Source: Fidelibacterota bacterium (GTDB lineage Bacteria; Fidelibacterota; Marinisomatia; Marinisomatales; JACNKV01). Taken from it: 57,541 nucleotides of DNA. The stretch is from assembly GCA_014381855.1 (NCBI GenBank), contig JACNKV010000075.1:1-57541 (forward strand), in the 5' to 3' direction. Positions 2,088-26,689 of the stretch are shown in pieces. A model generated the notes under the pieces. That model worked only from the letters and a program-made list of their open reading frames with translations. It was not told where the DNA came from and made no database searches. Numbering within the stretch: the first letter of the stretch is position 1; every line of letters begins with the position of its first letter. The position numbers and the translations under genes were made by a program.

Positions 2088-2309
2088 CGTTTCTATGTGG
2101 TTTTAGGATTTAAGAATCAGAATAATAAGTGAAAAATTAAGCAACTTGCCCATAGCCTTAAAAGAAAATTTGTAAGTTAATTTATCTCCCTACGCATCTT
2201 ATCTCATTAATTCATCAGCCGTTCCAGTAAAATCTATACATTCTTTGCAGAATAGTTTCACATTTCACAGGGTAAACTCCGGCTTGACGTGGAAGTGAAT
2301 CATTTTCAA

Positions 2310-2329
2310 CCCCGTACAAAACACGGGAT
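2310..2329. repeat. CCCGT/ACGGG hairpin repeat, copy A
   Basis: CCCCGTACAAAACACGGGAT. Its reverse complement is identical (20/20) to 55543-55562. Confidence 0.8.
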
Positions 2330-2575
2330 CTCAGCTACGCTTCGACTTTCACAATAATTCGTCTCCAGCTCATTATTGTACTCCAAAATCCTATCTTATA
2401 AAATGGGAATCCAACCGTAACGGAGGCGTTACCAACACTCCAGACTATAAGTGAAAGCTCGATAGAAAATACACTTATCCTCCGGCCCAAAGGCTGAAGT
2501 TAATCATCTTTTTCATTAACCATTAGCTTCCCACCGGTAGGTAGGCTAATCTTAATCCTCATCCAAATAACCGAT

Positions 2576-3247: not shown

Positions 3248-3260
3248 GTTGCTATGCTTT

Positions 3261-3857: not shown

Positions 3858-3860
3858 TGC

Positions 3861-7153: not shown

Positions 7154-7246
7154 AATCGTTCCTTTTCTCTCATTGATTTTGTTTTATTTTAAACCTTTAC
7201 CAGCGAGTCAGTTTACATTTTATTAGGTATATAATACTACATAAAT

Positions 7247-7264
7247 CTGACCGTATATGGTCAG
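7247..7264. promoter_or_regulatory. palindromic candidate enhancer (UAS) for the sigma-54 activator
   Basis: CTGACC-GTATAT-GGTCAG has perfect 6-bp arms. An extra GGTCAG half-site lies at 7278-7283. The centre is about 105 bp upstream of the -24 element. Confidence 0.55.
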
Positions 7265-7358
7265 TCCGCCAACTCACGGTCAGCTTACTATTAACCGCAC
7301 TTATCGGCAATAACCCCTAACTGTAATTATAACGACACGTAAAAAGAACATTATATAT

Positions 7359-7374
7359 TGGCACAGTATTTGCT
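7359..7374 (+). promoter_or_regulatory. sigma-54 (-24/-12) promoter
   Basis: TGGCACAGTATTTGCT matches the TGGCAC-N5-TTGC consensus at every conserved position. It lies about 60 nt upstream of ATG 7433, and a sigma-54 activator is encoded divergently. Confidence 0.85.
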
Positions 7375-7432
7375 CATATATACTCGTTGTACGTACAACA
7401 CAAATAAACAGAAACTAAGGAGTTAAATAATA

Positions 7433-8812: not shown

Positions 8813-8828
8813 TTGGTTTTGAAAAATC

Positions 8829-8854
8829 GCAAGGGTGGCAATCGTCACCCTTGC
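8829..8854 (+). terminator. stem-loop (partial terminator or attenuator) after the porin gene
   Basis: GCAAGGGTG-N8-CACCCTTGC forms a 9-bp GC-rich stem followed by TTATTT. It sits 20 nt before the next start codon. Confidence 0.55.
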
Positions 8855-8876
8855 TTATTTCAAAAAGGAAGATAAT

Positions 8877-9254
8877 ATGAAAAACAAAAAATATGTGGTG
8901 GTAATAAGTTGTGCTGTCTTGGGGATGATTATAGGCTTATGGTCATGTTGTAATCCACCTGCACTTCAGGTGCAATCCACCGAAATTCACGAAGATGTTG
9001 ACTTCAGCCTTGGTTGTACAGAATGCCATGAAGAAGAGACACCTGACATTTTTGAAGATTGGGCAATCAGTGGTCACGGAGCAATGAATTATGGCTGTTA
9101 TATTTGCCATGGAGATGGAACTATAGAATTTTATCCTGAGCCTTCAATTGATGGATGTACATCCTGTCACGAATCTGCTGCTGGACATTTAATGAGAGTA
9201 GAGAATGATGGTTGTTTCGAATGTCATGACGGTCACTCTCTTGAACCATATTAA
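8877..9254 (+). CDS. small tetraheme c-type cytochrome (NapM-like), probable lipoprotein
   Basis: Four CxxCH motifs (CTECH, CYICH, CTSCH, CFECH). Hydrophobic N-terminus ends in 'LWSCC'. ATG 8877 is preceded by AAAAGGAAG. The tracked GTG 8835 start would run through the hairpin. Confidence 0.8.
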   Translation: MKNKKYVVVISCAVLGMIIGLWSCCNPPALQVQSTEIHEDVDFSLGCTECHEEETPDIFEDWAISGHGAMNYGCYICHGDGTIEFYPEPSIDGCTSCHESAAGHLMRVENDGCFECHDGHSLEPY

Positions 9255-11548: not shown

Positions 11549-11740
11549 CAACAGGTAAACTGCAGGAGGTTATAACAAACCTCATTTAGAGGTTATCTTT
11601 GGTTGTTGTGCGATTAATCGTTAAATAATCTCCTGCAGGATTTTCCGAGTTTACCTTGTTAATATCTAATTAATAACTGCTGACATACCTACGACATAAT
11701 GAATACGGTGAGCGTGGTTATGTCAGTTAATGCGAAATAA

Positions 11741-12316
11741 ATGACATCAGCTGATCATATCTCTCGCAGTGAATTTTTTAGTTCATTCATTACAAAAATA
11801 AAAAGTAGTTATTCCGGGACAGCAAAAAAGATTAGTGTTGTGGGTGATGTAGTTTTCCCCCCGGGTGTAACCGGCATTGATCACTTTTTATCGACGTGCA
11901 ACCGATGCGATAAATGCGTTGCTGCGTGTCCGCATGAATCCATTCGCATCTTACACGGAGACGAGGCAAAGTACTCAGGATATCCGATTATCGACTCTCA
12001 AATTCAGCCATGCTTTTTTTGCGGTGATTTTCCCTGTATTAGCGTATGCGATACCGGAGCCCTGATTAAACAAAATAATATGAAAATTGGTGTTGCCGAG
12101 ATTATCACAGAAAATTGTCTGGCACACTCCGGTAATTTTTGTCAAAGCTGCATTAACAATTGTCCGTTAATTGGGAAGGCAATTTTCTGCGGTACAAACG
12201 GAAAGCCGGAAATAAATAAAGAAGTTTGTAACGGCTGCGGGATCTGTGTTCAGGTTTGTCCCGCTGAGCCCGTTGGAATTATCATTAAACAAACGAAGGA
12301 ACTACCATGCCAATAG
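11741..12316 (+). CDS. napF: NapF-like poly-ferredoxin (4Fe-4S clusters)
   Basis: 191 aa with four Cys cluster motifs: 'CNRCDKCVAACP', 'CFFCGDFPCISVC', 'C..C..C...CP' and 'CNGCGICVQVCP'. A 'PPGV' motif precedes the first cluster. Confidence 0.65.
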   Translation: MTSADHISRSEFFSSFITKIKSSYSGTAKKISVVGDVVFPPGVTGIDHFLSTCNRCDKCVAACPHESIRILHGDEAKYSGYPIIDSQIQPCFFCGDFPCISVCDTGALIKQNNMKIGVAEIITENCLAHSGNFCQSCINNCPLIGKAIFCGTNGKPEINKEVCNGCGICVQVCPAEPVGIIIKQTKELPCQ

Positions 12317-12564
12317 CAGGTGTATTAATCTTAACCCAGCCAGAATTATCTGATAATGCGCTGGTAAAATTAAATAAAATGAACAAGGTTACTACCTACG
12401 GTATTCATAAAGAAAATTATATTATTGCCGTACTGGAGGGTAATTCCATATCCGAACTGGAGACCATTACCAATTCAATAACAAGCAAAATACCCGGTGT
12501 TATTGGGGTCTATCCGTCTTACGTGAATTATGAGGAAATAGAAACACAGGAATCCACAGAATAA
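12307..12564 (+). CDS. napD: NapD-like Tat-signal chaperone
   Basis: 85 aa. NapD-like pattern 'IAGVLILTQPE...IIAVLEG.S..E....I.....GVIGV'. Its position next to napA is typical. Confidence 0.75.
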   Translation: MPIAGVLILTQPELSDNALVKLNKMNKVTTYGIHKENYIIAVLEGNSISELETITNSITSKIPGVIGVYPSYVNYEEIETQESTE

Positions 12565-12576
12565 GGGTCTTTGTAA

Positions 12577-13092
12577 ATGTGGGATAACTGGTTAAACAAA
12601 TTAGCAGATTTAAGAGATCCTCTTAGACCTCCCGGTGCCGTTGAAGAAGATGAATTTCTTCAAAAATGTATCCGTTGCCGTAAGTGCGAAGAAGTGTGTC
12701 CTTTTGAATCTATCAAATCTGCGCATGGAGAATGGGGATTAAAAATGGGATCCCCGATTATTCACCCCAGAGATACTCCTTGTTATCTATGTGAAGATTT
12801 TCCTTGCATTGAATCTTGTCCAACGGAAGCTCTTGAGCCCATCAAGTCAAAAAATGATGTTAAAATGGGTATTGCTGTGATCGACAAAACACTCTGCTTT
12901 GCTTATAACGATATTCTGTGCCGCGCGTGTTTTGAGCGATGTCCAATACATAGAGAAGCGATAACGATGAAAGATGAATTATATCCGGTAGTAGATGAAA
13001 ATAAATGTGTCGGTTGCGGAATCTGTGAATATGTATGTCCTACTGAACAACCTGCCATTACTATCATTAGTTCACACAAGGTTGGCGGTTAA
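12577..13092 (+). CDS. napG: NapG-like poly-ferredoxin (4x 4Fe-4S)
   Basis: 171 aa. 'LRPPGA' motif, then 'CIRCRKCEEVCP', 'CYLCEDFPCIESCP', 'C..LCRACFERCP' and 'CVGCGICEYVCP'. Clear paralog of the 11741 gene. Confidence 0.7.
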   Translation: MWDNWLNKLADLRDPLRPPGAVEEDEFLQKCIRCRKCEEVCPFESIKSAHGEWGLKMGSPIIHPRDTPCYLCEDFPCIESCPTEALEPIKSKNDVKMGIAVIDKTLCFAYNDILCRACFERCPIHREAITMKDELYPVVDENKCVGCGICEYVCPTEQPAITIISSHKVGG

Positions 13093-13095
13093 AAT

Positions 13096-13944
13096 ATGAA
13101 GAAATTTGAAAAGTATCTAAATGACCATCTTCATATTTTAAGAAGGATGATGCAAGTGGGCACAGTTCTTTTTATTATCGCAGTTCCGTTACTGAATAAA
13201 ATAGGATATCATGGCGTAAACGGAACCTTTTACAGTTTAAGTATAGGTGAATTGAATATTGTAGACCCGGCTCTGGCATTGCAAACCATTCTACTGACAA
13301 AAAGTATATATCTACCATTAATTTTGGCAATTGTTTTGCCAATTCTTCTTGCTATGTTTCTTGGGAAAGTATTTTGCAGCTGGATGTGTCCTTATAATTT
13401 CCTCGCAGAGTTTACAGAAAAGTTTAGGAAACTAATCAAGCCGGTAGAAAAACAGAAAAATACGAATCCTAGCCCTCAATATTACTGGATAATTTTTGGA
13501 ATAATCCTGGTACTTTTAATGATTACCGGCATTCCGGTCATTACGTTGATTTCTATGCCAGGATTAATCACCTCTCAAATAGCAGATGGAATTCTCTACA
13601 ATGTTGTAGGTATCGAAATATTACTGATAGCATTGCTTTTAATCTTAGAAGTCTTTGTTGCACCAAGATTCTGGTGCAAATATGCTTGTCCGGTTGGAGC
13701 AACTTTATCCTTGGTTAAAACAAAATATGCACTCAAGATAAAATACAGCGCGAAAAGTTGTGCAGAATGTAAAGAAATTAAAGAAAATCCATGCAATCAA
13801 GTCTGTCCTTTGCAATTAAATCCTAAATCTGTGAAAATATATCCTTACTGTAATAACTGTTTTGAATGCATCACAACCTGTAATGATGTTGGCTGTCGTG
13901 CATTAAAAATTACTTTTCAACCATTGAAAACGAATAAACCATAA
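13096..13944 (+). CDS. napH: NapH-like membrane quinol-dehydrogenase Fe-S subunit
   Basis: 282 aa with four predicted TM helices. Two CxxxCP motifs ('CSWMCP', 'CKYACP'). C-terminal ferredoxin-type Cys clusters. Confidence 0.75.
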   Translation: MKKFEKYLNDHLHILRRMMQVGTVLFIIAVPLLNKIGYHGVNGTFYSLSIGELNIVDPALALQTILLTKSIYLPLILAIVLPILLAMFLGKVFCSWMCPYNFLAEFTEKFRKLIKPVEKQKNTNPSPQYYWIIFGIILVLLMITGIPVITLISMPGLITSQIADGILYNVVGIEILLIALLLILEVFVAPRFWCKYACPVGATLSLVKTKYALKIKYSAKSCAECKEIKENPCNQVCPLQLNPKSVKIYPYCNNCFECITTCNDVGCRALKITFQPLKTNKP

Positions 13945-13959
13945 GGAGGAAGAATCTAT

Positions 13960-14427
13960 ATGGTAAAGAAAAAGAAAGTGAAACTTAATAGAAGAGAGTT
14001 TTTCAAAAAGACCGGTTACCTTGGCATAATAGCCTTGGGTATTGGAGCTTTTTTGAAAAATATCTTCTTATATATCTCACCAGAACAGAAAGAAAAGACC
14101 TACCACAAGTATCTTGTTGGGAAGAAAAATCAAATACTTCCGGGTAAGGCAAAAGAGATCACCATTCAAGGTAAACCGGTGTTTGTTGTAAACCAAGGAA
14201 CGGAATTCAAAGTGTTTTCCGGTGTTTGCACACACCTTGGATGCATTATCAAATGGGAAGAAAACAACGACGGTTTTTATTGTCCGTGTCATCAAGGATT
14301 TTTTGATAAATCCGGACGTGTTGTCTCTGGTCCGCCACCGACACCGCTAACAGAATTCCCAGTTGTAGAAGAGAAGAACCTAATCTACATCCAGGTGGAA
14401 GATAAAAAGAAAGGACCCTGGGCATGA
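13960..14427 (+). CDS. Rieske 2Fe-2S protein (Tat-anchored)
   Basis: 'NRREFFKKTG' twin-arginine region plus a TM helix. Rieske boxes 'CTHLGC' and 'CPCHQG'. Confidence 0.88.
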   Translation: MVKKKKVKLNRREFFKKTGYLGIIALGIGAFLKNIFLYISPEQKEKTYHKYLVGKKNQILPGKAKEITIQGKPVFVVNQGTEFKVFSGVCTHLGCIIKWEENNDGFYCPCHQGFFDKSGRVVSGPPPTPLTEFPVVEEKNLIYIQVEDKKKGPWA

Positions 14428-15458
14428 GTACTACATGGACAAAGACACGCATCCCCATTGACGGTGGGAAAATAAAAGAAGCGATGTTTGGTGAGAAAAT
14501 TCCACTCCATATGAAGAATTGGGTTCTCGCAATGGGTACAACACCATTCATTTTGTTCCCATTACAAATTATCACCGGAATATTACTGGCATTATATTTT
14601 GTCCCTTCTGTGGAAATGGCTTACGAAAGTGTCCGGCATATTTCGCAGGATATTCGATATGGATTTTGGATACGAGGTATTCATCACTGGGGAGCAAATC
14701 TGATGGTCATTTCTCTATTTCTCCATATGATGCGAGTGTTTTTCACTCATTCATACAGAAAGCCACGAGAAATCAATTGGGTATTTGGATTCCTATTGCT
14801 GTCTCTGACATTGACAATCTCGTTTACCGGTTATTCTTTAACCTATAATCAGGTGTCTTATTGGGCTGCAACAGTCGGAACAAATCTTGTTAAGGAAATC
14901 CCATTAATCGGAGGATTTGTGCTCAGCCTTCTACGAGGAAGTGAAGGGGTTACGGCTCATACACTAACCAGGTTTTACACGTTGCATGTGTGGATATTGC
15001 CTGTAGTGATATCACTTATCATCGGTGCACATATCTTTTTAGTTCGGTCGCACGGTGTATCAGAACCTGATGGATTTGAAAAAGGTCACTACGATTTCTA
15101 TCCTGGACATTTCTACAAAATTATTGTTGTAACACTGTTCCTGATTTCGTTATTGAGTTTACTGTCTGTGGTCTTACCACCTGGACTTGGTGAACAGGCA
15201 GACCCGGCGAACACCCCGCTTCACATTAAACCTGAGTGGTATTTCTTCCCTGTGTTTTTGATTTTACGATTTGTCCCGTTACAACTTGGATTAGCCATCA
15301 CAGGACTGGCAATTGTTTTGATGATATTCTGGCCATTCATTGAGCCGATGTTATCAAAGAAGAAAAAATCACGCACAGTCATAGCAAACATCATTGGATG
15401 TATCGCGATTGTCATCTTAATTACACTTACAATCTTTGAAGCATTTTCAATCATTTAA
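14424..15458 (+). CDS. cytochrome b (b6 plus subunit-IV-like fusion) of a Rieske/cyt b complex
   Basis: 344 aa and polytopic. 'RGIHHWGANLM' and 'FYTLHVWILP' heme-ligand helices. 'PEWYF' motif as in the cyt b/b6f Qo region. ATGA overlap with the Rieske gene. Confidence 0.88.
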   Translation: MSTTWTKTRIPIDGGKIKEAMFGEKIPLHMKNWVLAMGTTPFILFPLQIITGILLALYFVPSVEMAYESVRHISQDIRYGFWIRGIHHWGANLMVISLFLHMMRVFFTHSYRKPREINWVFGFLLLSLTLTISFTGYSLTYNQVSYWAATVGTNLVKEIPLIGGFVLSLLRGSEGVTAHTLTRFYTLHVWILPVVISLIIGAHIFLVRSHGVSEPDGFEKGHYDFYPGHFYKIIVVTLFLISLLSLLSVVLPPGLGEQADPANTPLHIKPEWYFFPVFLILRFVPLQLGLAITGLAIVLMIFWPFIEPMLSKKKKSRTVIANIIGCIAIVILITLTIFEAFSII

Positions 15459-15476
15459 TAAGAAAGAGGAATAACA

Positions 15477-17090
15477 ATGGAAAATAAAAACATAACACAA
15501 TGGTTAATCGGCGTCTTTAGTCTTGTCATGATCGTTTCTTTGATGATCGTAGCCGGTTATGAAGTAAATAAAACAAAAGAACAAGGGCATGAGATTGACG
15601 TTGACAAAGTATCTGCCCGTTGTATCACGTGCCATGAAAAAGAAAACATTGCTGTGAAGCAAATTCACGCATGGGAAGAAAGTGAACATGCATTAATGGG
15701 CATCGGCTGCAACGAATGTCATGAAGCAAAAGAAGGCGATTTTGATGCCTTTTACTGCGAAAACAGCGATATGCTTGTCGGTCGTCATCCTACTCCAAAA
15801 GACTGTGAGGAATGCCACGATCAGGAAGTAAAAGAATTTGCGAACAGTAAACATGCCCATCAGTTCTGGCTTTTTGCTAATGCGGATAGGGCGACATTTG
15901 AAAATCCAATTTCTACCAGACATGGATGTGAACAATGCCACCAAATTGGGAATTTATGGCCTGACGGTAGTGTCGGAGAATGTGACGCTTGCCATTCCAA
16001 ACATTCATTCGATTTAGCAGTTGCACGTCAACCTGAAACATGCGGAGAATGCCACATTGGACCTGACCATCCCCATATTGAGATTTACAATGAATCTAAA
16101 CACGGAAATATTTTCAAAGCCAAAGGCAGCGATTGGGCCATGGATTATCATACAGACAACTTTGAACCCATCCCAATTGAAGCTCCGGTTTGTGCCACCT
16201 GCCATATGGATGGGAACGAAACACAACCCATGACACACGACGTCAGTGCTCGTTTGGCGTGGGAGTCTCAGTCTCCGTGGAGTTATAGAACTGTTTGGGA
16301 TGAAGAAAACCTTGGTAGCTGGGATATGAAACGTGGTCGCATGGAATCAATCTGCCAGAGTTGCCATGCACCTGATTTTGTTGATACATATTTGTTAACA
16401 GCTGATTTAGTCAATCTTCAGTATAATGAAATGCGAAGAAACTTTGTTTATTGGACAAAGAAATTGACCAATAATGGGACGATAGATCGGTTGAAAGCAA
16501 ATGGTGAATTTAAATCCAATCCTGTCCTCAATGGATGGGACGAAACACCGGAGCATGAAATGTATTATGCCTGGCATCATGAAGGTCGACGTTTTCGTCA
16601 TGGAGCTGAAATGATGGGAGCAGATTTCACCCAATGGCACGGCGTCTGGGAACTCCAAGAAGATATGGTTGAATTAATTACTTGGGCCGCAGAACATGGG
16701 GACCATGAAGCAGAAAAATGGGTTATTTCTAATCATCCTTCCAAGTTTGTTCCGTATGCACTTTACGACATCCCGGGCAATGCATGGGGTATTGGGGCAA
16801 AAACAAATACCACTCCGTTTGTTTATAACGAATACTCAGATTATTGGGATCGGGTCAAGGCAAATGTGAAGACAGCCTATGAGAAAGGACTGCTTACAAA
16901 AGATCAGTGGAATCTGTGGATGGATCGATACGAAAATAAGGACCATTATCTTGGATTAAAATATGCAAATGATCCTAAAGTCGTAGAAAAATGGGATTTC
17001 TACAAAGAACGTAATGCCATTGATACAAAGGCTTTCAAAGAACAAGCTGTTCAATTAAAGTTACCCGGAAAGCCCTTCTACACTAAATAA
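15477..17090 (+). CDS. membrane-anchored octaheme c-type cytochrome, hydroxylamine-oxidoreductase (HAO) family-like
   Basis: Eight CxxCH motifs (CITCH, CNECH, CEECH, CEQCH, CDACH, CGECH, CATCH, CQSCH). HAO-like segment 'CGECHIGPDHPHIEIYNESKHG'. N-terminal TM helix. Confidence 0.75.
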   Translation: MENKNITQWLIGVFSLVMIVSLMIVAGYEVNKTKEQGHEIDVDKVSARCITCHEKENIAVKQIHAWEESEHALMGIGCNECHEAKEGDFDAFYCENSDMLVGRHPTPKDCEECHDQEVKEFANSKHAHQFWLFANADRATFENPISTRHGCEQCHQIGNLWPDGSVGECDACHSKHSFDLAVARQPETCGECHIGPDHPHIEIYNESKHGNIFKAKGSDWAMDYHTDNFEPIPIEAPVCATCHMDGNETQPMTHDVSARLAWESQSPWSYRTVWDEENLGSWDMKRGRMESICQSCHAPDFVDTYLLTADLVNLQYNEMRRNFVYWTKKLTNNGTIDRLKANGEFKSNPVLNGWDETPEHEMYYAWHHEGRRFRHGAEMMGADFTQWHGVWELQEDMVELITWAAEHGDHEAEKWVISNHPSKFVPYALYDIPGNAWGIGAKTNTTPFVYNEYSDYWDRVKANVKTAYEKGLLTKDQWNLWMDRYENKDHYLGLKYANDPKVVEKWDFYKERNAIDTKAFKEQAVQLKLPGKPFYTK

Positions 17091-17180: not shown

Positions 17181-17280
17181 ACTCCGAGTTCGACAACCTG
17201 TCCTCGTGTGAGCATGGTTTAGAACCGATAGGGTGGAGTTGGAAACGGCTTCGCCTCCCGCGCTTGGAAAGGAGCACATA
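17181..17280 (+). promoter_or_regulatory. candidate Moco (molybdenum cofactor) riboswitch, translational OFF type
   Basis: P1 pairs CUCC (17182-85) with GGAG (17271-74), sequestering the SD AAAGGAG. Internal helices are 17185-88/17203-06, 17216-26 and 17232-38/17249-55. The 3' core CUUCGCCUCCCGCGCUUGGAAAGGAG resembles the E. coli moaA Moco motif as I remember it; this was not computed. Confidence 0.6.
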
Positions 17281-19548
17281 ATGAAATACATACAAAAAAT
17301 ATCCTTAATTATATTATTCATCTTGTCGTATACATTCTGCAACACCGAAATATCCGGGATTGTAAGAGACGAACACAATAATCGACTGCTTGAGGGATGC
17401 AATATTACCCTGGAGGGTACGAAAATTGGTGTCACCACAAATCAATCCGGACACTATTGTTTCAACGATGTCGAACCGGGGATGTATACTCTTTGTGCAG
17501 AGTATATCGGTTACATAACCACCGTAGAAACTATTCAGGTAAATATAGACCAAACTTTGAATATTGACTTCTGCCTATCTCCTACTGTAATCAAAGGAAA
17601 TGAAGTGGTGGTCACTGCAACAAGAACAGAGCATAGATTAGTGGATATCCCCGGAAGAATAGATGTGGTTACACACGCTGAGTTAAATAGTCTGCCTACC
17701 CAAAATCTAGATGACATTCTAAAATACTTATCGGGTCTTAATGTCCATCGAACTTCAGGGATATTTGAGATCAGACCGGTTGTAAGTTTGCGCGGAGTTT
17801 CAGGAGATGAACCGGGAAGAACTTTGGTGTTAGTCAACAGCACTCCAATTAATAAATCTGATACTGGAGTGGCAAACTGGAACAGAATCAATGTAGCAAA
17901 TATAAAACAAATTGAAATCTTCAAAGGCGCCGGTTCATCTCTGTACGGGAATAACGCCATGGGAGGAGTGATAAATATTATCACTCAAACTCCAGATGAC
18001 AATTTTAGCGGAAAGGCTCATGCTTCATACGGAACCTATAATACATTGAGTGGAAACCAATATATTTCAGGCCGGAAGAATGCTTATTATTATAATTTTG
18101 GTTGGTTCACACGCAAAAGCGATGGGTATTATGACCTTCCTGATAGTTTACAGGATGACTATTCAGTCCCGCTATTTCTAGATGAAAAAGGGATATCAAC
18201 TACAGTAGGATTTAATTTTACTCCTAATAATACTTTTGAAATCATTTATGATTATTACGACGATAAACGAGGTGAAGGTGTAAAAATCGAAGAAAAAGAC
18301 GGAAAGCATCGCAGCTTCGATACAAATATGTTACAAGTAAAATTAACTGGGAAAAATAAAAAGTCCAGATACGAAATAAACGGATTTTATCAACATGAGA
18401 ATTATTTAAGAGTAAGTGAAGATTTTAAAAATGGCTCATATTATAAATTTGATGTCGCTTCAAACCGAATTGATAGAGGGGTGTTATTTAATTATACTCG
18501 TGATATAGGTAGCTATCATTTAATCACTGTTGGCTCAGAATTGAAATCCGGGAGTGTCGATGGTGGTGATTATTATGCCACGCCTGACACCACCCCGCGT
18601 GATACGGTTTTAAATCGTGGTAAAATGCAATTCAGAACATTATATCTGCAGGATGAGTTCAATCTTTTTGGCAACAAACTGCGGTTTGTTGCCGGAATCC
18701 GATATGATAATGTAAAATTCCATCAGGGATATTTCCATGCCAACCTGGAATCAAATCCTTTCTATTCTTACAATGGTCATCTTGATGAAAATGAGTGGAA
18801 TGCAATGAGTCCAAGAGTAGCCGTGAAATATCATTTTGGAAACCAAATGAGTGGTTATCTTTCTTACTCTCAAGGTTTCCGTGCTTCGATACTTGACGAT
18901 TTATGTCGTTCGGGGTGGATGCGGCTTGGACCGAAAGAAGCCAATCCAGACCTAGGTCCCGAAACAATAGACAGTTATGAACTTGGGTTAGATTATTCAC
19001 CGACTTCAAATGTAAAAATATCCCCTTCATTCTATTTTTCGAAAGGACACGATTTTCTATATTTTGTTGCTACCGGTGATTCACTTTGGGGTAGAAAGCC
19101 CATCTACAGAAGAGAAAATATAACCGGAGTTGATATTTATGGTGCTGAAATCGATTTTACATTCAGACCAAATCATAATATTTCGCTTCATGGTAATTAT
19201 TCGTATAATCACTCGACAATATTTGAATTTTCTAAAAACCCGGAATTGGAGGAAAACTATTTAGTTTACTCCCCTATTCATCAAGCCAATGCAACAATGC
19301 AGTGGAGGAACAAGTATTTAAACATTAATTTTGGAATTAACTATAAAGATAAACAATTCACTAACGATGATAATTCTGAAGAATTGGCTGCATATTATAC
19401 CATAGATGCCCAGCTGTCAAAAGTACTGTATAAAAAAGTCAACATAGCCATCGATTTTCAGAATATTACAGATATAAGACAGACAGAACATTTAGAAAGG
19501 CTTTCCCCTGGAAGATTAATCAATTTGATGCTATCATACGATTGGTAG
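17281..19548 (+). CDS. TonB-dependent receptor with N-terminal CarboxypepD_reg-like domain
   Basis: Signal peptide MKYIQKISLIILFILSYTFC. Plug domain ('VVVTATRTEH', 'IEIFKGAGSSLYGNNAMGGVINIIT'). Long beta-barrel ending in 'LSYDW'. The tracked GTG 17233 start lies inside the leader RNA structure. Confidence 0.9.
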   Translation: MKYIQKISLIILFILSYTFCNTEISGIVRDEHNNRLLEGCNITLEGTKIGVTTNQSGHYCFNDVEPGMYTLCAEYIGYITTVETIQVNIDQTLNIDFCLSPTVIKGNEVVVTATRTEHRLVDIPGRIDVVTHAELNSLPTQNLDDILKYLSGLNVHRTSGIFEIRPVVSLRGVSGDEPGRTLVLVNSTPINKSDTGVANWNRINVANIKQIEIFKGAGSSLYGNNAMGGVINIITQTPDDNFSGKAHASYGTYNTLSGNQYISGRKNAYYYNFGWFTRKSDGYYDLPDSLQDDYSVPLFLDEKGISTTVGFNFTPNNTFEIIYDYYDDKRGEGVKIEEKDGKHRSFDTNMLQVKLTGKNKKSRYEINGFYQHENYLRVSEDFKNGSYYKFDVASNRIDRGVLFNYTRDIGSYHLITVGSELKSGSVDGGDYYATPDTTPRDTVLNRGKMQFRTLYLQDEFNLFGNKLRFVAGIRYDNVKFHQGYFHANLESNPFYSYNGHLDENEWNAMSPRVAVKYHFGNQMSGYLSYSQGFRASILDDLCRSGWMRLGPKEANPDLGPETIDSYELGLDYSPTSNVKISPSFYFSKGHDFLYFVATGDSLWGRKPIYRRENITGVDIYGAEIDFTFRPNHNISLHGNYSYNHSTIFEFSKNPELEENYLVYSPIHQANATMQWRNKYLNINFGINYKDKQFTNDDNSEELAAYYTIDAQLSKVLYKKVNIAIDFQNITDIRQTEHLERLSPGRLINLMLSYDW

Positions 19549-19559
19549 GAAATTTGTAA

Positions 19560-20141
19560 ATGAGTCTACAAAAATATTTCACAAGAACAATACTGATGGG
19601 AACAATCTGGGGTTTAGTTGAAGTCTTTTTATCCCCAATCATAAAAAGTATTACACCACACTTATTTAGTGTAATCATGCCATCTATTGCAATTGTAATC
19701 ATTTTAATCGGGCGATATTTCGTTCCATATTTTGGTTCAACCATTTCAATGGGAATTATTGCTGCGTTTGTCGAATATATGCTCGGCGGGATGTTACTTG
19801 ACGGCGCATTTATGGCTATCATTTTAGAAGCTGTATTCTGTGAGTTGATTCTGTCAGTTGTTGGTTTCAATTTATGGTCATTTGTATTATCGTGCATTAC
19901 CATCCTTGACTATAGTGTTTTACATCCGTTAATCAAAAAAGGTGTTTCCTGTCAATCCATGCAACATATCTTTGTAAAGAACCTATTACACACATTGTTT
20001 ATTGTTGACAAATCTGTATTAACTGCTGTAGATATCACATTTATACTGTTGGCTTTTCATACTATAATTGGTATGTTTCTAGGCTTTCTGTTTTATTTCT
20101 TATTTCAGAAGATTTCCATAACAGAAAAGGAATTCGCATGA
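19560..20141 (+). CDS. small polytopic membrane protein, unknown family (paralog 1)
   Basis: 193 aa with about 5-6 hydrophobic helices. Shares 'GT.WGL.E..L.S', 'II.LI.R', 'GST' and 'IAA' blocks with the next gene. Confidence 0.7.
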   Translation: MSLQKYFTRTILMGTIWGLVEVFLSPIIKSITPHLFSVIMPSIAIVIILIGRYFVPYFGSTISMGIIAAFVEYMLGGMLLDGAFMAIILEAVFCELILSVVGFNLWSFVLSCITILDYSVLHPLIKKGVSCQSMQHIFVKNLLHTLFIVDKSVLTAVDITFILLAFHTIIGMFLGFLFYFLFQKISITEKEFA

Positions 20142-20713
20142 CCAAAACCTCCATCGCATACACCGCTGTTTTTGGAACACTTTGGGGGTTAGCTGAAGCC
20201 ACGCTTGGTTCGGTAATGCACTTGATAAATCTACCCTTATCCGGATCTGTGCTTTCAACAGTTGGGATGATCATCGTCCTAATCGCCAGAGGAGTCAACC
20301 CCCAACGCGGAAGCACGTTGATGATGGCATTAATTGCAGCCATGATAAAAATAATGAGTTTTGCAACTGTAAAACTTGGCCCTTTTGTCGGGATATTGCT
20401 GGAAGGCGTAATGCTGGAAATGATTCTCACAATATTTTCACCAAATTTTCTGGGATTCATGCTATCTGGGATTATTGTTTCAGTCTATCCGCTCATTCAG
20501 ACGCTCACGGTAAAAACAATTCTATTCGGAGCAGATTTTATTCCGGTTATTCTCGAAATGGCGGAGGGTTTTTCACATCGCATCGGTTTTGGAGCAGGAT
20601 GGTGGATTTTGGGTCTTTATGTGTCCATTCACTTTGTTTTCGGAGTCGGGGGAGCTTTATTTGCATGGCTCATAAAATCGCAACTTAACAAGAAAATAAT
20701 TAATGAATCTTAA
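20138..20713 (+). CDS. small polytopic membrane protein, unknown family (paralog 2)
   Basis: 191 aa. ATGA overlap with paralog 1. Same conserved blocks ('GTLWGLAEATLGS', 'IIVLIARG', 'GSTLMMALIAAM'). Confidence 0.7.
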   Translation: MTKTSIAYTAVFGTLWGLAEATLGSVMHLINLPLSGSVLSTVGMIIVLIARGVNPQRGSTLMMALIAAMIKIMSFATVKLGPFVGILLEGVMLEMILTIFSPNFLGFMLSGIIVSVYPLIQTLTVKTILFGADFIPVILEMAEGFSHRIGFGAGWWILGLYVSIHFVFGVGGALFAWLIKSQLNKKIINES

Positions 20714-21815
20714 ATCCCTAATAACATCGTTGCGGCTTGGGGTCTCTCTGCTCATATTCATCGGAGTCTTTTTCCTGCAAATAAGTCCCGTCGGAATCAC
20801 ATGTCTTATTTTCATTATTGCATGGATATACAATCACAATACGGTACGTCCATTAAAACGAATACCGTTTTGGGTCACCATCGGAATATTGGTGATTGCC
20901 GTTCCGATTTTCACAGGGATTCAAGATAAAACATTCTTAACAATAACGTATAGCAGTGTTCAATTATCAAAAACAATGCTGATGGCATTTAGGGGAATTT
21001 CTGTCTTCCTTCTTTTTCAGGTGATAACAATAAACCTGAACAGCGAAAAAGTTACAGCGCTATTTACAAAACTTGGCTTCAGCAATTTTAATTCTGTTTA
21101 CACTTTATCGAATAAAACCATGCCGCATCTCCGCAGCATTTTGTCTGCACGTGTTACGGAGCTTCGTGTTGAATGGAAGGCTCATCATCAACTCAAAAGT
21201 GTATTCGATTTTATTATTTTAGTATTACGAGATTTAATCCGATTGGCGGAATCTTTGGGGAGCGACACATCCGGCAACGAAAAAATCACACCTTTGGATT
21301 TCATTCAAGCACGCAAGAATGTAAACCCACCTTCATTAACCGTTATTACCGGTGAATCGGGAACGGGGAAATCCAGATGGTTAGCAAGTTTGGTGACTTG
21401 CCTGAACAGTGCCGGTAATAATGTGGACGGAATTATCTCAGAAAAACATCGAATCTCTGACAGCGATTGGCATCATAACCTTCTGCGAATAGAGACAGGA
21501 GAAAAGTGGCAATTAAATACGATGAGCAATTTTGATACGCACATCCATGTCGGCAAGTTTTTCTTTTACCCGGATGTCATCGAATGGGGTTGTAATCAAT
21601 TAATCGAATCCATCGATGCAAACTATCTGATTATTGACGAAATTGGAATTTTAGAATTTAATGGGGAGGGGTTTCTACCGGCGTTAAAAATAATCGATGA
21701 TAACTTTCAAGGATACCTTATCATCACAATTCGTCGTCAATTAATGAATCAACTGGACATATTTTTAAAAAGTCATCTTCCGACAATCAGCAAGTGGAAA
21801 AGAACAACCGTCTGA
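20703..21815 (+). CDS. fusion protein: EcfT/CbiQ-like membrane domain plus THEP1/DUF2478-like P-loop NTPase
   Basis: 370 aa. The N-terminal ~190 aa has 4-5 TM helices and an EcfT-like coupling segment 'LFTKLGF...MPHLRSILSAR'. The C-terminal domain has Walker A 'GESGTGKS' and Walker B 'LIIDEIGILEFNGEGF'. No ABC signature (LSGGQ) is present. 11-nt overlap with the upstream gene. Confidence 0.6.
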   Translation: MNLKSLITSLRLGVSLLIFIGVFFLQISPVGITCLIFIIAWIYNHNTVRPLKRIPFWVTIGILVIAVPIFTGIQDKTFLTITYSSVQLSKTMLMAFRGISVFLLFQVITINLNSEKVTALFTKLGFSNFNSVYTLSNKTMPHLRSILSARVTELRVEWKAHHQLKSVFDFIILVLRDLIRLAESLGSDTSGNEKITPLDFIQARKNVNPPSLTVITGESGTGKSRWLASLVTCLNSAGNNVDGIISEKHRISDSDWHHNLLRIETGEKWQLNTMSNFDTHIHVGKFFFYPDVIEWGCNQLIESIDANYLIIDEIGILEFNGEGFLPALKIIDDNFQGYLIITIRRQLMNQLDIFLKSHLPTISKWKRTTV

Positions 21816-21927: not shown

Positions 21928-23178
21928 TTACAGCTTCCTAAAATCGGTCCCTGTAGGGTTTTGAAATACTTCAAGTTCAAATTCAGGGACTGCTGCAATA
22001 AAATGATCGAACATATCTGACATGATGCCTTCATATGTCACCCATTCCTGGCGATTGCTGAATGTATATATTTCGATTGGAAGACCTTTCTCTGTAGGAA
22101 GCAATTGCCTTACCATGCAGGTCATATTAAGATTAATATCAGGGTTATTTTTCACATAAGCTTCTGCATATACTCTGAAAATACCAATATTAGTTAAATG
22201 TTTTCCGTTTATTAAATAGGATTTATCTATCTTGTTTTCTTGATTGTACTCCTCAATTTCATTGCTTTTTTCTTCAATATAATCTTTTATCAGTTGAAAC
22301 TTTTTAAATCGTTCCAGCATTTCCAGTGTGCAGAATTTTATACTACTGATCTTAATATTTAAAGACCGTTTTATCCTTCTGCCTCCTGATTCTGACATTC
22401 CCCTCCAGTTCTTGAAAGAGTCTGAAATAAATGCATAAGTAGGGATAGTAGTAACAGTTTTATCCCAGTTTTGTATCTTTATGATCGTTAGGTTCATCTC
22501 AATAACATCACCATCTGCGCCATATTTTGGCATGGAGACCCAATCACCTATCCGTATCATATCATTTGCTGAAAGTTGTATGCTTGCCACAAATCCCAAA
22601 ATGGTGTCTTTAAATATCAATAACAAAACTACTGTCATTGCCCCCAAAGCACTAAAAAAGTATAACGGGGATTTATTCAGGAGGAATGATAGAATAATTA
22701 TACCACCTATAATGTAAATGGCGATTTTAACTAACTGGAAATAACTATCTAAGGGATTGTCTTTAAATAATTTTATGTTTTTGGAATAGTACTTGAGCGT
22801 ATTCAGAAAATTGATGATAACAATAATGAAAATAGTGCTGATATAAGCATTCACTAATCTCAAAATATAAGGAATTGCGCCGGCGAAATCCTCAAAAATA
22901 TAAGGAGTAGCCAAATAAATTACAATAGCCGGTGCAATATAAGAGAGTGAAATAATAACTTTATTTTCAATCAGAGCATCATCCCATACGGTTTTAGTTT
23001 TTTTGATTGCTAATCGGATAGAACGGATAAGAATCTTTTTTACAATGAGATTGGTAACATAAGAAATGATAAAAAGAATAAATAATAGAATTACTAATTT
23101 CAAATACATAGTGAAAGTTTCTCCAACTCCAATCCCAATTAGCCAATCTGTAAGCCATACCATCGATTCAGTGTTCAT
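21928..23178 (-). CDS. mechanosensitive ion channel (MscS family)
   Basis: 416 aa with several N-terminal TM helices. MscS beta-domain signature 'IRIGDWVSM..YGADGDVIEMNLTIIKIQNWD'. Confidence 0.85.
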   Translation of the reverse strand: MNTESMVWLTDWLIGIGVGETFTMYLKLVILLFILFIISYVTNLIVKKILIRSIRLAIKKTKTVWDDALIENKVIISLSYIAPAIVIYLATPYIFEDFAGAIPYILRLVNAYISTIFIIVIINFLNTLKYYSKNIKLFKDNPLDSYFQLVKIAIYIIGGIIILSFLLNKSPLYFFSALGAMTVVLLLIFKDTILGFVASIQLSANDMIRIGDWVSMPKYGADGDVIEMNLTIIKIQNWDKTVTTIPTYAFISDSFKNWRGMSESGGRRIKRSLNIKISSIKFCTLEMLERFKKFQLIKDYIEEKSNEIEEYNQENKIDKSYLINGKHLTNIGIFRVYAEAYVKNNPDINLNMTCMVRQLLPTEKGLPIEIYTFSNRQEWVTYEGIMSDMFDHFIAAVPEFELEVFQNPTGTDFRKL

Positions 23179-23211
23179 GCGTTTTTCCTTTCAAATCTTG
23201 GATTCAAGCAC

Positions 23212-23649
23212 TTATAAATCCAGCTTATTAATCCGTCTTTCGTGGCGGTCACCTTCAAACGGGAGTTTCATCCACATATCAATCATCTTAATGGCTTTTT
23301 CAGGGGATACAAATCTCGCTCCAAACGATAAAATATTGGCATTGTTATGCATCCGTGATAATTTCACAATTTCCTCCGGTCCATCATAAAATACGGCTGC
23401 CCTTACACCTTTTACCCGATTTGCCGCCATGGCTTCTCCCTGCCCCGATCCACCAAAAATAAACCCGCGATTCTCCCGACTCCCTGCAACAGCACGCGCT
23501 GCCGGAAGAATAAAATCAGGATAATCATCATCTCCGTCATAAGTAAATGCTCCAAAATCCTGAACCTCATATCCCTCTTTTTCCAGATGGGCTTTCACGG
23601 CTTCTTTCAAATGATATCCTGCGTGATCGGTGGCTAATATTATCTTCAT
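23212..23649 (-). CDS. rpiB: ribose-5-phosphate isomerase B
   Basis: 145 aa. 'MKIILATDHAGYHLKE...' and 'GSGQGEAMAANR' are typical of RpiB/LacAB. Confidence 0.92.
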   Translation of the reverse strand: MKIILATDHAGYHLKEAVKAHLEKEGYEVQDFGAFTYDGDDDYPDFILPAARAVAGSRENRGFIFGGSGQGEAMAANRVKGVRAAVFYDGPEEIVKLSRMHNNANILSFGARFVSPEKAIKMIDMWMKLPFEGDRHERRINKLDL

Positions 23650-23655
23650 CTTTTC

Positions 23656-25695
23656 CTACCTTAAATTGGATAAATGTTGTCTGACTCGATCTATCACTTT
23701 CTCTGCGGTAAATCCAAATTCTTCTGCGAGATCACCTGCCGGAGCCGATGCCCCAAAACGATTCAATCCGATATTGATTCCGTTAAGTCCGGTATATTTC
23801 TCCCAACCGCGGGTAATTCCGGCTTCGATAGACACCGTCAAACATCCGCGCATCGGAATAAGTTCACCTCGATACTCCATCGGTTGTGCATCAAATATTT
23901 CCATAGAAGGCATACTCACGACACGAACTCGTTTATCGGTCATCTTTTCAGCGACGTCCATCGCCAGAGAAACTTCCGAACCGGTAGCAACCATAACAAT
24001 CTCCGGGTTTCCGTCACAATCCAAGACCGAATACGCTCCTTTTCGAACACCGGATTCTATCTTTTCAATGTCAAAAGGAAGGACGGGTAATCCCTGTCTG
24101 CTGAGAAGTAATGCACTTGGCGTGGATTTTGATTCGACGGCCAACTTGAAACACACCGCCGTTTCTTTCGGGTCTGCAGGACGGAATATATACAGATTCG
24201 GGATGGTCCGTAACGCCATGATGTGTTCTACCGGCTGGTGTGTGGGACCGTCTTCTCCGACGTAAAAAGAATCATGAGTAAACTCATAGATTACCGGTAG
24301 TTTTTGCAAAGCGCTCAAGCGGATTGCCGGGCGGACATAATCTGAGAAAACCGCAAAAGTCCCGCCAAATGGGATTGCTCCGCCATGCAGAGCCATTCCA
24401 TTCATAATCGTTCCCATCGGAAATTCCCGCACACCAAAAGCAATATTTCGTCCCTTGCGATTGCTTTTATTAAAGTCACCCCATTTTTTGGCAAACCCTC
24501 CGGTATAATTGGACGGTTCTAAATCTGCGGAACCTCCGACTAAATGGGGAAGCTGTTCTGCAAATTTTTCCAAAACGGTTCCAAATGTTTTTCGGGTTGC
24601 CGATGAAGTCCCATCATCAAAATTGGGATATACCAATTCTTGCGGACCATTCTCCATTACTTGTGCCCATCGTTTTGCAATTACAGCATCTGTCTTTGCC
24701 CAATTAAGTTGGTCTTTCCACCGTCCCACAGATTCTCGAAGTTCACCAAATCGAGTCTGAAAATGGTTGACGGCTTCATCCGGGAGATAAAACTGTTCAG
24801 GAGCAAGACCCATTTTCTCTTTGGTGGCGTCGATCTCATCCTGCGGCATCGGTGAACCGTGTGTATTGTGATCACCTTCCAATCCGGCGGAACCATGAGC
24901 CATGATGGTTTTCCCAATAATAATGCTGGGGCGGTCAATCACTTGGGCTTTTTGGATTGCATCGCGGATTTTTTCATGGTCGTGTCCGTCAATTTCTTGC
25001 ACATGCCAGCCAAACCCGTCAAACACGGTTGCGATATTTGTAGAGTCGGAGCGATTCGTATGCCCGGAAATCTGTTTCTCATTGGAGTCATAGTACAGAA
25101 CAAGTCTGGACAGCCCTAAATGTCCAGCGATTGCAGCCACACCTAAAGCAACCGGCTCCTGCAGATCTCCGTCTCCGGCAATCACATAGGTAAAATGGTC
25201 AATTAAACTTCCCATTTCTCCTGAAAAATCCATTCGGTAACGAAGCATAGATTCGGCTAACGCCATTCCGACTGCCATCCCGACACCCTGTCCCAGCGGA
25301 CCGGTGGTTGCTTCCACGCCAGGAATTTCTACTTCGGGGTGCCCCGGAGTCCGGCTTTGCAGCTGACGAAAGGATTTTAAATCATCAACTCCCAGCCAAC
25401 CGGTGAGCGTTAACAAAGAATATAACAGCATAGACTCATGCCCGGCTGACAGTACAAAACGGTCACGATCTTTCCAATTCGGGTCATCAGGATCGATTTT
25501 TAGGAATTCAGTAAAAAGGATGGTGGCAAAATCGGCGGAACTCATTGCCCCGCCGGTATGACCGGAATTGGCGTTGCGAACACCATCCATGACCAAACCT
25601 TTGATAACATTCACTAAAAATAAGTCTTTGTCCTCAGCGGACCATAATTCAAATTCGGATATGTCTTTATATGTTCTCATGTTTTTTTCACTCAC
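23656..25695 (-). CDS. tkt: transketolase
   Basis: 679 aa. TPP motifs 'SGHTGGAMS' and 'GDGDLQEPV', plus 'THDSFYVGEDGPTHQP'. Confidence 0.95.
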   Translation of the reverse strand: MSEKNMRTYKDISEFELWSAEDKDLFLVNVIKGLVMDGVRNANSGHTGGAMSSADFATILFTEFLKIDPDDPNWKDRDRFVLSAGHESMLLYSLLTLTGWLGVDDLKSFRQLQSRTPGHPEVEIPGVEATTGPLGQGVGMAVGMALAESMLRYRMDFSGEMGSLIDHFTYVIAGDGDLQEPVALGVAAIAGHLGLSRLVLYYDSNEKQISGHTNRSDSTNIATVFDGFGWHVQEIDGHDHEKIRDAIQKAQVIDRPSIIIGKTIMAHGSAGLEGDHNTHGSPMPQDEIDATKEKMGLAPEQFYLPDEAVNHFQTRFGELRESVGRWKDQLNWAKTDAVIAKRWAQVMENGPQELVYPNFDDGTSSATRKTFGTVLEKFAEQLPHLVGGSADLEPSNYTGGFAKKWGDFNKSNRKGRNIAFGVREFPMGTIMNGMALHGGAIPFGGTFAVFSDYVRPAIRLSALQKLPVIYEFTHDSFYVGEDGPTHQPVEHIMALRTIPNLYIFRPADPKETAVCFKLAVESKSTPSALLLSRQGLPVLPFDIEKIESGVRKGAYSVLDCDGNPEIVMVATGSEVSLAMDVAEKMTDKRVRVVSMPSMEIFDAQPMEYRGELIPMRGCLTVSIEAGITRGWEKYTGLNGINIGLNRFGASAPAGDLAEEFGFTAEKVIDRVRQHLSNLR

Positions 25696-25796
25696 TAGCC
25701 ACTAATATCGCGAATAAACACGAAGATGATTATACTCAATGAGACCAAATCGGGCTTCGTCATAATTCGTAATATTCGTTTCTAATGAACAGTATG

Positions 25797-26471
25797 TTAG
25801 TTAGTAATTTTATTAATAAACTGCTGAATGGCTGCCACCGGATCATCCGCTCCGAATACAGCTGAACCTGCCACTAAAATATCTGCTCCGGCATTCGCAA
25901 CTTCTTTCGCATTATCAAGTTTGATTCCGCCGTCAACTTCAATTAGCACGCTGTCCTGAAGACATTGCTCCAATAATCGTTGTCTGATTTCAGCGATACG
26001 CTCCGTTGACCCCGGTAAATACCCTTGTCCGCCAAACCCGGGTTCCACGCTCATCACCAAGATCATGTCTACTTTATCGAAAAAGGGTTCAATAGCGCTT
26101 ACCGGCGTTTTCGGTTTTAGTGATATCCCAACTTGCTTTCCTGTTACCCGAATCAGGTCTATCACGTCATCGGGATTTTCCGCTGCTTCTATGTGAAAAG
26201 TGATTCCATCGGCTCCGGCACGGGCAAAGGGTTCAACCAAATTTTCGGGATTTGTGACCATAAGATGGACATCCAAAAACCGGTTGGTGTGCGGTCGCAA
26301 GGATTTCACCACCAACGGACCGATGGTCAGATTCGGGACAAAATGATTATCCATCACATCGACATGGATGTACTCAGCACCGCCTTTTTCACAAATATTG
26401 AGCGCTGAGCTGAGATTGGAAAAATCCGCAGATAAAATAGACGGGGCGATTATCACTGTTTTATTGCTCAT
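25797..26471 (-). CDS. rpe: ribulose-phosphate 3-epimerase
   Basis: 'IAPSILSADF', 'HVDVMDNHFVPN' and 'MSVEPGFGGQ'. I prefer ATG 26471 (MSNKT...) over the tracked TTG 26483. Confidence 0.93.
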   Translation of the reverse strand: MSNKTVIIAPSILSADFSNLSSALNICEKGGAEYIHVDVMDNHFVPNLTIGPLVVKSLRPHTNRFLDVHLMVTNPENLVEPFARAGADGITFHIEAAENPDDVIDLIRVTGKQVGISLKPKTPVSAIEPFFDKVDMILVMSVEPGFGGQGYLPGSTERIAEIRQRLLEQCLQDSVLIEVDGGIKLDNAKEVANAGADILVAGSAVFGADDPVAAIQQFINKITN

Positions 26472-26689
26472 AACGAAGTACAAGTTTACTTAATCAATCG
26501 GTATCGTTGAAAGAGACTTTATGTCTCTTTGGAATGCACCAGCCGTGTCGGTGTAATGTTAACATGATTAGCATACTCCATATTTCGTTTTTGTGGAAAT
26601 TTACTGTTGTTACTCTTTCAAAGGTGAACTTGTCTTAGCGTCGTGTCAAGTGTGTAGTGTGTAAAGCTGAACCCCCAACACAAAATTAA

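Follow-up and report, generated by a model that had tools for sequence, protein, structure and literature searches.

A candidate ECF-derived transport module carrying a THEP1-type NTPase in place of ABC ATPases

Three adjacent genes (19560-21815) of a 57,541-nucleotide contig from a Fidelibacterota bacterium (JACNKV010000075.1, assembly GCA_014381855.1; the whole stretch is referred to as the window) were found by sequence comparison to encode a putative system derived from energy-coupling factor (ECF) transporters. The system consists of two S-like proteins of six helices each, a T scaffold, and a nucleoside triphosphatase (NTPase) of the THEP1 type, the last two being joined in a single polypeptide. 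What defines ECF transporters is that ATP-binding cassette (ABC) ATPases act on the coupling helices of their T component. Comparison with related loci showed that, as far as homology can tell, this ABC pair was replaced by a THEP1-like NTPase in the lineage of the window and in many others, which agrees with the replacement by an unrelated NTPase suggested in an initial annotation of the sequence. We are highly confident of the architecture, of the T domain's homology, and of there being two types of partner. That the fused NTPase energises ECF-like import is favoured to a lesser degree. It is proposed only tentatively that these genes represent an unrecognised class of primary active importer, in which an ECF-type S/T module is driven by a THEP1/NTPCR-type NTPase, and which is widespread in Bacteroidota, other bacteria of the Fibrobacterota-Chlorobiota-Bacteroidota (FCB) group, and anaerobes, serving the TonB-linked uptake of molybdenum/tungsten (Mo/W) or a cofactor precursor. 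Below, S denotes the upstream membrane protein, T the N-terminal domain of the fusion protein, and N the NTPase; hyphens denote fusions.

The operon and the features of the fusion gene are as follows (all on the + strand; helices are numbered as transmembrane helices, TM, and coupling helices, CH).

17233-19548, + strand: TonB-dependent outer-membrane receptor, with Pfam plug and beta-barrel domains
19560-20141, + strand: S-like membrane protein, paralog 1, 193 aa, a divergent extra copy with homology to paralog 2
20138-20713, + strand: S-like membrane protein, paralog 2, 191 aa, about six hydrophobic helices, orthologue of a conserved partner gene
20703-21815, + strand: T-N fusion gene (short CbiQ/EcfT-like T domain plus THEP1-type NTPase), an intact open reading frame (ORF) with an ATG start, 370 aa
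20703-21272, + strand: T-like membrane domain, residues 1 to about 190 (Foldseek, hhalign, phmmer)
20991-20993, + strand: codon of Arg97, kept in 165/166 members and aligned with Arg116 in TM4 of L. brevis EcfT
21123-21125, + strand: codon of Pro141, kept in 163/166 members and aligned with Pro169 of the EcfT motif RFVP at the start of CH2
21318-21812, + strand: THEP1/NTPase_1-type P-loop NTPase domain, residues about 206-370 (Pfam, Foldseek, profile search)
21351-21374, + strand: Walker A, GESGTGKS, residues 217-224 (sequence reading)
21627-21647, + strand: Walker B, LIIDEIG, residues 309-315, followed by LEFNGEGF (sequence reading)

The gene for paralog 2 overlaps the fusion gene by 11 nt, the two paralog genes share an ATGA overlap, and the stop codon of the TonB receptor gene lies 11 nt before paralog 1. 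Because of this short gap, the receptor probably belongs to the same operon as paralog 1, and the overlaps and the gap together make the receptor, both paralogs, and the T-N gene look like one translationally coupled unit. No ABC gene was detected in this operon with Pfam, the remainder of the window not having been scanned exhaustively for ABC genes.

The two domains of the fusion protein

The C-terminal half is a regular member of the THEP1/NTPase_1 family, and NTPase activity is predicted. Pfam NTPase_1 (PF03266) matched residues 214-347 with 51.2 bits against a cut-off of 23.9. The AlphaFold2 (AF2) model of the full fusion had a mean predicted local distance difference test score (pLDDT) of 79.8, with 85-95 in the NTPase domain, and its best matches in the PDB by Foldseek were 1ye8 (E 6.3e-6) and 2i3b (E 1.5e-5), which are THEP1 of Aquifex aeolicus and the human cancer-related NTPase, respectively. 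The family profile recovered the same entries from the PDB sequences (3.7e-15 for 1ye8 and ~1e-14 for 2i3b). The Walker A and Walker B motifs pointed out in the initial annotation are present, and their residues G217, G222, K223, D312, and E313 were invariant among the homologues, as were G315 and E318. The same annotation had assigned the domain to THEP1/DUF2478-type NTPases; the THEP1 part of this assignment stood, whereas the resemblance of the window protein to DUF2478 was weak (E 0.09). DUF2478 was matched by 16/30 S-T-N relatives, with a best E of 2.6e-7. The non-ABC nature of the domain was borne out. Neither LSGGQ nor SGG was found anywhere in the 370-aa protein, and ABC_tran (PF00005) reached 14.7 bits against a cut-off of 25 in the P-loop region alone. 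A degenerate ABC domain was rejected on these grounds and because the best fold and sequence matches were to THEP1.

The N-terminal half, predicted earlier to be hydrophobic and helical, was modelled by AF2 with helices at residues 3-26, 29-43, 45-52, 54-70, 85-109, 114-123, 129-161, and 165-186, and a simple hydropathy scan gave three strong hydrophobic peaks there. It can be read, from the model, as about four membrane helices followed by amphipathic helices. The T domain ends at about residue 190, and a linker of ~20 residues leads to the NTPase. In the alignments, this domain spans the equivalents of TM1-4 and CH1-CH3, with the last TM helix of EcfT and the Ala-Arg-Gly signatures missing. 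The segment flagged at the outset for its likeness to the coupling-helix region (LFTKLGFSNF...MPHLRSILSAR, residues ~119-150) indeed has its counterpart in EcfT where CH2 begins and in the residues immediately preceding it, and residue 155 is Arg or Lys in 137/166 members.

Four independent lines of evidence, namely fold, profile-profile comparison, intermediate sequences, and context, indicate that the N-terminal domain is a short, divergent T component of the CbiQ/EcfT superfamily. Since the NTPase domain dominated the Foldseek search with the full-length model, in which EcfT first appeared at rank 20, the N-terminal domain was modelled separately (AF2 of residues 1-196, pLDDT 70) and searched against 350,542 PDB chains. 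All top nine matches were ECF T components, i.e., EcfT of L. delbrueckii and L. brevis and CbiQ of Rhodobacter, with E 0.013-1.0 and TM-scores of 0.28-0.38. The scores are weak and the exclusivity of the T-component matches is striking. The helix order of the model agrees with that of the hhalign alignment. For this alignment, an EcfT profile was built from the EcfT sequences of the PDB and 120 homologues. The 166 T domains of the family matched this profile with Prob 64.9 and E 6e-5 over 149 collinear columns, while the reversed-sequence controls gave E 0.03-0.1 and the reversed and cross-family controls together gave E 0.03-0.6. The match of the 42 stand-alone T proteins (Prob 93.1, E 3e-7) extended over 151 columns, as far as the end of CH3. 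An EcfT profile of two sequences was too weak to decide (Prob 1.3). As intermediates, the stand-alone T relatives P0095 and P0110 exceeded the Pfam CbiQ threshold (35.0 and 31.4 bits, respectively, versus 25), and the T domain of the window matched them by phmmer at 1.5e-15 and 2.2e-13. Thus, the relationship to CbiQ/EcfT proposed at first emerged from the agreement of phmmer to CbiQ-positive relatives, hhalign, and Foldseek, with no direct Pfam match.

Distribution of the family and its two types of partner

Hidden Markov models (HMMs) were built here for S, T, and N. The T-N architecture of ~370 aa was found in 27 protein clusters with 35-99% identity from independent assemblies, and an exhaustive HMMER search with the T-domain profile gave 504 clusters (50% identity) at E <= 1e-3. 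When one genome was scanned for each GTDB species, at least 355 relatives were detected. Among 176 collected family proteins, 66 had the T-N architecture, 52 were S-T-N, 52 were T alone, and 6 were S-T. An assembly or frameshift fusion, a concern raised in the initial annotation, was therefore rejected, as T-N proteins (66/176) recur down to 35% identity in many assemblies. In one locus (L007, 1872-3029), the T-N gene is split into fragments of 92 aa and 287 aa, probably by a frameshift or an assembly error.

Locus arrangements were counted in 80 loci kept from the GTDB-species scan. Besides the arrangement of the window, in which S is followed by T-N, the S-T-N fusion, separate S, T, and N genes (L042), S-T with a separate N (L062 and L020), and S followed by N were observed. 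The order S, T, N was kept in all but L020, where N lies upstream of S-T. The arrangement of S followed by N was seen in Dehalococcoidia (L057, 7252-8561; L072, 7276-8531), where an S-like gene of 235-243 aa is directly followed by an NTPase gene; the T profile detected no T domain in these two loci, which either have a T too divergent for the profile or represent a variant with two modules. The arrangement of the window was found in metagenome-assembled genomes (MAGs). S-T-N is common in Bacteroidales, Rikenellaceae, Prolixibacteraceae, Marinilabiliales, Ignavibacteria, and KSB1 and scattered in Clostridia, Desulfuromonadales, and Acidobacteria. Carriers include the cultured Prolixibacter denitrificans DSM 27267 (L045, S-T-N gene at 7290-9035) and MAGs assigned to Draconibacterium orientale and Paludibacter propionicigenes.

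A comparison of a small sample, five loci with stand-alone T genes, revealed two types of partner. In L089, L092, and L093, a gene for a tandem double ABC ATPase is followed by S-like and T-like genes, with no THEP1-like gene. The ATPase of L089 scored 280 and 276 bits on two NCBIfam models of ECF-transporter ATPases, and our S and T HMMs confirmed the partner genes of the three loci at 1e-41 to 1e-47 and 1e-24 to 1e-26, respectively. The T proteins of L092 and L093 are the above-mentioned P0095 and P0110, and that of L089 (P0083) falls below the Pfam CbiQ threshold. This layout is the canonical one of a dedicated ECF transporter such as YkoEDC. The other two loci carry no ABC gene: the order is MobA, S, T, NTPase_1 in L088 and MobA, S, T, TonB receptor, NTPase_1 in L091. 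In no locus examined did the NTPase gene occur together with the double ABC ATPase gene. L020 is the sole locus with ABC and THEP1-like genes adjacent; at ~1300-4462, the separate N gene, with the S-T gene behind it, is preceded at a distance of 26 bp by a gene for a single-domain ABC ATPase, and this ABC gene may belong to a neighbouring system.

The Arg-Gly signature, scored as R[GS]G no more than 30 residues past the conserved Pro, followed the type of partner. It was present in 3/3 ABC-partnered T proteins (KLRGGF, RSRGGF, and ILRGGF) and absent in 2/2 NTPase-partnered stand-alone T proteins (L088 and L091). Overall, it occurred in 0/64 T-N proteins (ELRVEW in the window), 1/47 S-T-N proteins, and 6/43 stand-alone T proteins. 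Judging from these alignments, the Arg-Gly coupling signature, which contacts the ABC ATPases in EcfT, was lost in the NTPase-fused forms. The simplest reading of the comparison would be one ECF-type S/T module with two alternative nucleotide-hydrolysing partners, in which the coupling motif was lost upon replacement of the ABC pair.

The two upstream ORFs of the window proved to be true paralogs (34% identity, E 1e-17), as had been supposed. Paralog 2 shares 52-66% identity with the genes upstream of T-N in L001 and L003-L005 and 29% identity (E 4e-17) with the N-terminal module of P0028, a protein of the S-T-N class (573 aa). It is thus the orthologue of the partner gene conserved upstream of every T-N gene. 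A second S copy is also present in L006, the closest relative (78% identity). Because the S-like proteins stand N-terminal to T in the fusions and are encoded, in three operons, after the ECF ATPase and before the CbiQ-type T, they are regarded as the S partner. The earlier suggestion that the paralogs are S-like modules was hence supported by their fusion to T-N in many species and by their place in the operons with a double ABC ATPase; at the level of sequence, the match to S components stayed below threshold. PF09819, the family of the ECF S component YkoE (PDB 5edl), gave a sub-threshold score of 16.2 bits for paralog 1 and no match for paralog 2. The assignment of the family as S components would therefore rest mainly on position and fusion.

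Proposed mechanism and competing explanations

Since the T domain stops after CH3 and a linker then leads to the NTPase, the NTPase occupies the end of the CH3-like helix, which presumably corresponds to the docking site of EcfA/A' in solved ECF structures. On this basis, a working model can be put forward. The S-like subunit would bind a cargo delivered via the adjacent TonB-dependent receptor and would topple against the T scaffold, as in ECF transporters. Binding and hydrolysis of a nucleoside triphosphate (NTP) by the fused NTPase, possibly after dimerisation, would then move the CH2/CH3-like helices and reset the cycle. The cargo would serve the NapA-type molybdoenzyme of the same gene cluster.

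The closest known counterparts are the group I ECF transporters, e.g., YkoEDC of Bacillus subtilis and CbiMNQO/NikMNQO, which likewise have the gene for a small protein with several helices (S) beside that for a T scaffold. The T domain of the module is homologous to CbiQ/EcfT across TM1-4 and CH1-CH3, close relatives of the window proteins carry a tandem ECF-type ABC ATPase like YkoD, and neighbouring genes point to the uptake of a trace nutrient or metal. By analogy, the module would work like, and descend from, dedicated ECF transporters. Unlike those transporters, the window operon is without an ABC ATPase and has a THEP1-type NTPase covalently attached to T, and there is one NTPase domain per T versus two ABC domains. 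Its T domain is ~190 aa long versus ~265 aa and is without the C-terminal TM helix and the Ala-Arg-Gly signatures; the S-like family falls below the threshold of all Pfam S-component models; and the system is coupled to TonB-dependent receptors in Gram-negative bacteria of the FCB group. With THEP1/NTPCR proteins (PF03266; 1ye8 and 2i3b), the NTPase shares Walker A, a Walker B of the DEIG..E type, and the fold. It differs from them in being fused to, or encoded beside, a membrane transporter scaffold, and to our knowledge the members described so far are small and soluble, and neither a physiological partner nor a cellular role has been established for them. The ModABC, TupABC, and WtpABC importers and their DUF364 companions share gene company with the module (DUF364, MobA, ModA, and molybdoenzymes), whereas the module has no homology to ModB or ModC and is without a periplasmic binding protein of its own. 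Searches of the open-access literature found neither a T component joined to a THEP1-type NTPase nor this S/T subfamily described, in line with the absence of a precedent remarked on earlier.

Several observations weigh against this interpretation. For the T domain, Pfam CbiQ (PF02361) gave no match to the window protein at E <= 1, the NCBIfam scan was likewise without CbiQ, and searches of the PDB sequences by phmmer with the whole protein and by the T-domain HMM returned chance matches only (phage tail-tube proteins and G-protein-coupled receptors) and no EcfT. The TM-scores to EcfT given above are low, and the coupling-helix region had a pLDDT of 55-72. When compared with a narrow EcfT profile of Lactobacillaceae, neither T-N proteins alone (E 0.07) nor S-T-N proteins alone (E 0.14) gave a significant match; the EcfT signal in hhalign stems from the combined family and the stand-alone T members. 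For the S-like family, matches to PF09819 were collinear and near full-length in 4/8 members, with 16-22 bits below the cut-off of 25.2. Comparison of the family by hhalign with YkoE alone or with 118 Bacillaceae homologues of YkoE was not significant (E 0.017-0.5), its profiles found nothing among the PDB sequences, and no Pfam S-component model recognised it above threshold. The ABC-partnered variant is known from three loci only. Finally, we know of no THEP1-family NTPase that drives a transporter or acts as an ABC-like dimer, and transport, NTP hydrolysis, and coupling are all what we infer here.

An alternative that we consider unlikely, if worth serious attention, is that the S/T module is ECF-like and the NTPase is not its motor. 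The S-like protein would then be a solitary facilitator, a behaviour reported for certain S components, and the NTPase would be a gate, a regulator, or a cargo chaperone of the MobB/G3E type that passes a metal or cofactor to MobA or DUF364. This would suit the finding that no genes adjoin the module more often than those for MobA-like proteins and DUF364, as well as the presence of one NTPase domain per T where ECF transporters have two ABC domains. THEP1 enzymes hydrolyse NTPs slowly and non-specifically and are not known to do mechanical work, which also speaks for it. Weak matches to MobB in 14/30 and to CobW/HypB/UreG in 10/30 S-T-N proteins point in the same direction, but these MobB and G3E matches were far weaker than those to THEP1. 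Moreover, the NTPase is attached at the docking position of the ABC ATPases, and it and the double ABC ATPase exclude each other at the loci examined. Since the loss of Arg-Gly tracks the exchange of partners, a functional replacement fits better than an added accessory.

Quite improbable is the explanation that the protein is not an importer at all and is instead a membrane-anchored P-loop NTPase for signalling, export, stress, or phage defence built on an EcfT-like scaffold. Two observations would suit it: a sigma-54 two-component system immediately precedes the genes in window-type relatives, and the P-loop gave matches, albeit weak ones, to STAND/KAP and PtuA models. Transmembrane P-loop NTPases with roles in defence exist, according to one report (PMC13001434). 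The PADLOC matches, however, were limited to the P-loop region (13-19 bits) and were judged to be P-loop noise, and a defence system was rejected. The neighbours are metabolic and transport genes and not defence islands, and the operons of relatives are canonical ECF ones in which ECF-type ABC ATPases, TonB receptors, and ModA are encoded. That the ORF is an assembly or frameshift artefact, or its C-terminal domain a degenerate ABC ATPase, is scarcely credible, because, although some genomes encode T and N separately (L042 and L088) and T-N is split in the L007 MAG, the ~370-aa architecture is recurrent across many assemblies and its NTPase domain has no ABC signature and matches THEP1 best.

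If the importer interpretation is true, the toppling mechanism of ECF transporters can run on a different motor, and the THEP1 family would gain its first physiological role. Because the Arg-Gly signature was lost together with the ABC partner, the family would offer a natural experiment on the evolution of mechanical coupling. It would also provide a testable cellular role for the THEP1/NTPCR and DUF2478 families, with added context for DUF364, and may show by what route a Mo/W-related nutrient, needed for nitrate reductase and other molybdoenzymes, is acquired in many Bacteroidota, Ignavibacteria, and related anaerobes. The existence of cultured carriers makes the hypothesis directly testable.

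Genomic neighbours and putative cargo

Genes around the module were clustered and annotated in 85 loci. The commonest neighbour was DUF364/DUF4213, located directly upstream in ~20 loci, usually overlapping, all of which are of the S-T-N type. In L017, L023, L026, L029, and others, this gene, annotated as 'putative heavy-metal chelation', overlaps the start of the S-T-N gene. DUF364 and S-T-N look like a new, tight partnership for that orphan family. DUF364 has been reported to be associated with transporters of molybdate, tungstate, and other rare metals (PMC2954201), and in Methanococcus DUF364 belongs to a modABC operon that is co-fit with nitrogenase (bioRxiv 10.1101/2024.03.05.583561). 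MobA-like genes, in most cases next to the module or near it, were found in ~8-12 of the 85 loci, and L088 and L091 carry them too. TonB receptors stand next to the module in ~11/85 loci, in L091-L093, and in the window. In L089, a bona fide modA gene directly follows T (4826-5593; TIGR01256, 216 bits versus a cut-off of 62.5). No modB or modC is located near it, and one would not expect a periplasmic binding protein beside a module of the ECF type.

In the window, the module closes a same-strand gene run that contains a NapA-like operon, and a MobA-like gene lies further upstream.

3261-3857, - strand: MobA-like molybdenum cofactor guanylyltransferase (context; the same family adjoins the module in other genomes)
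9266-17090, + strand: NapA-like molybdoenzyme, NapG/NapH-like ferredoxins, Rieske protein, cytochrome b, and multihaem cytochrome (context, outside the module)

The NapA-like protein scored 644 bits on the NapA model, which is below the equivalog cut-off. Because DUF364, MobA, ModA, and a NapA-type operon are neighbours of the module, we would guess, through guilt by association and with some doubt, that the cargo is Mo/W-related, i.e., molybdate, tungstate, a Mo/W chelate, or a cofactor precursor. The TonB receptor suggests a cargo larger or scarcer than free molybdate. Two facts disfavour a Mo/W cargo: molybdate has no obvious need for a TonB receptor, and DUF364 was found neither in the 57 kb window nor in the window-type loci.

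The region at 3261-8812 of the window encodes, after MobA, a histidine kinase with Tll0287-like, HAMP, and PAS domains, a sigma-54 response regulator, and a porin of the Alginate_exp type (AlgE-like). In L003, L005, L008, and L010, a molybdopterin oxidoreductase, a small c-type cytochrome, a porin, a kinase, and a regulator flank the module, and S and T-N come directly after the regulator; this gene set is without the Nap ferredoxins, the Rieske/cytochrome b proteins, and MobA. The co-occurrence of the kinase, regulator, porin, and oxidoreductase with S and T-N in at least five genomes suggests a common regulon.

The run at 9266-17090 includes two NapG/F-like ferredoxins and a NapH-like protein, and its multihaem cytochrome (537 aa) showed weak matches to models of hydrazine dehydrogenase and of the hydroxylamine oxidoreductase (HAO) type. 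It thus forms an unusual nitrate/nitrite respiratory cluster in which Nap is combined with a Rieske/cytochrome b module. Downstream of the fusion gene, the - strand (21928-26483) carries rpiB, transketolase, and ribulose-phosphate 3-epimerase genes in synteny with L001 (9114-12268), to which the window adds a convergent gene for an MscS-type channel (21928-23178). In L001, the single S gene follows a hemerythrin gene, which stands where the window has the TonB receptor gene.

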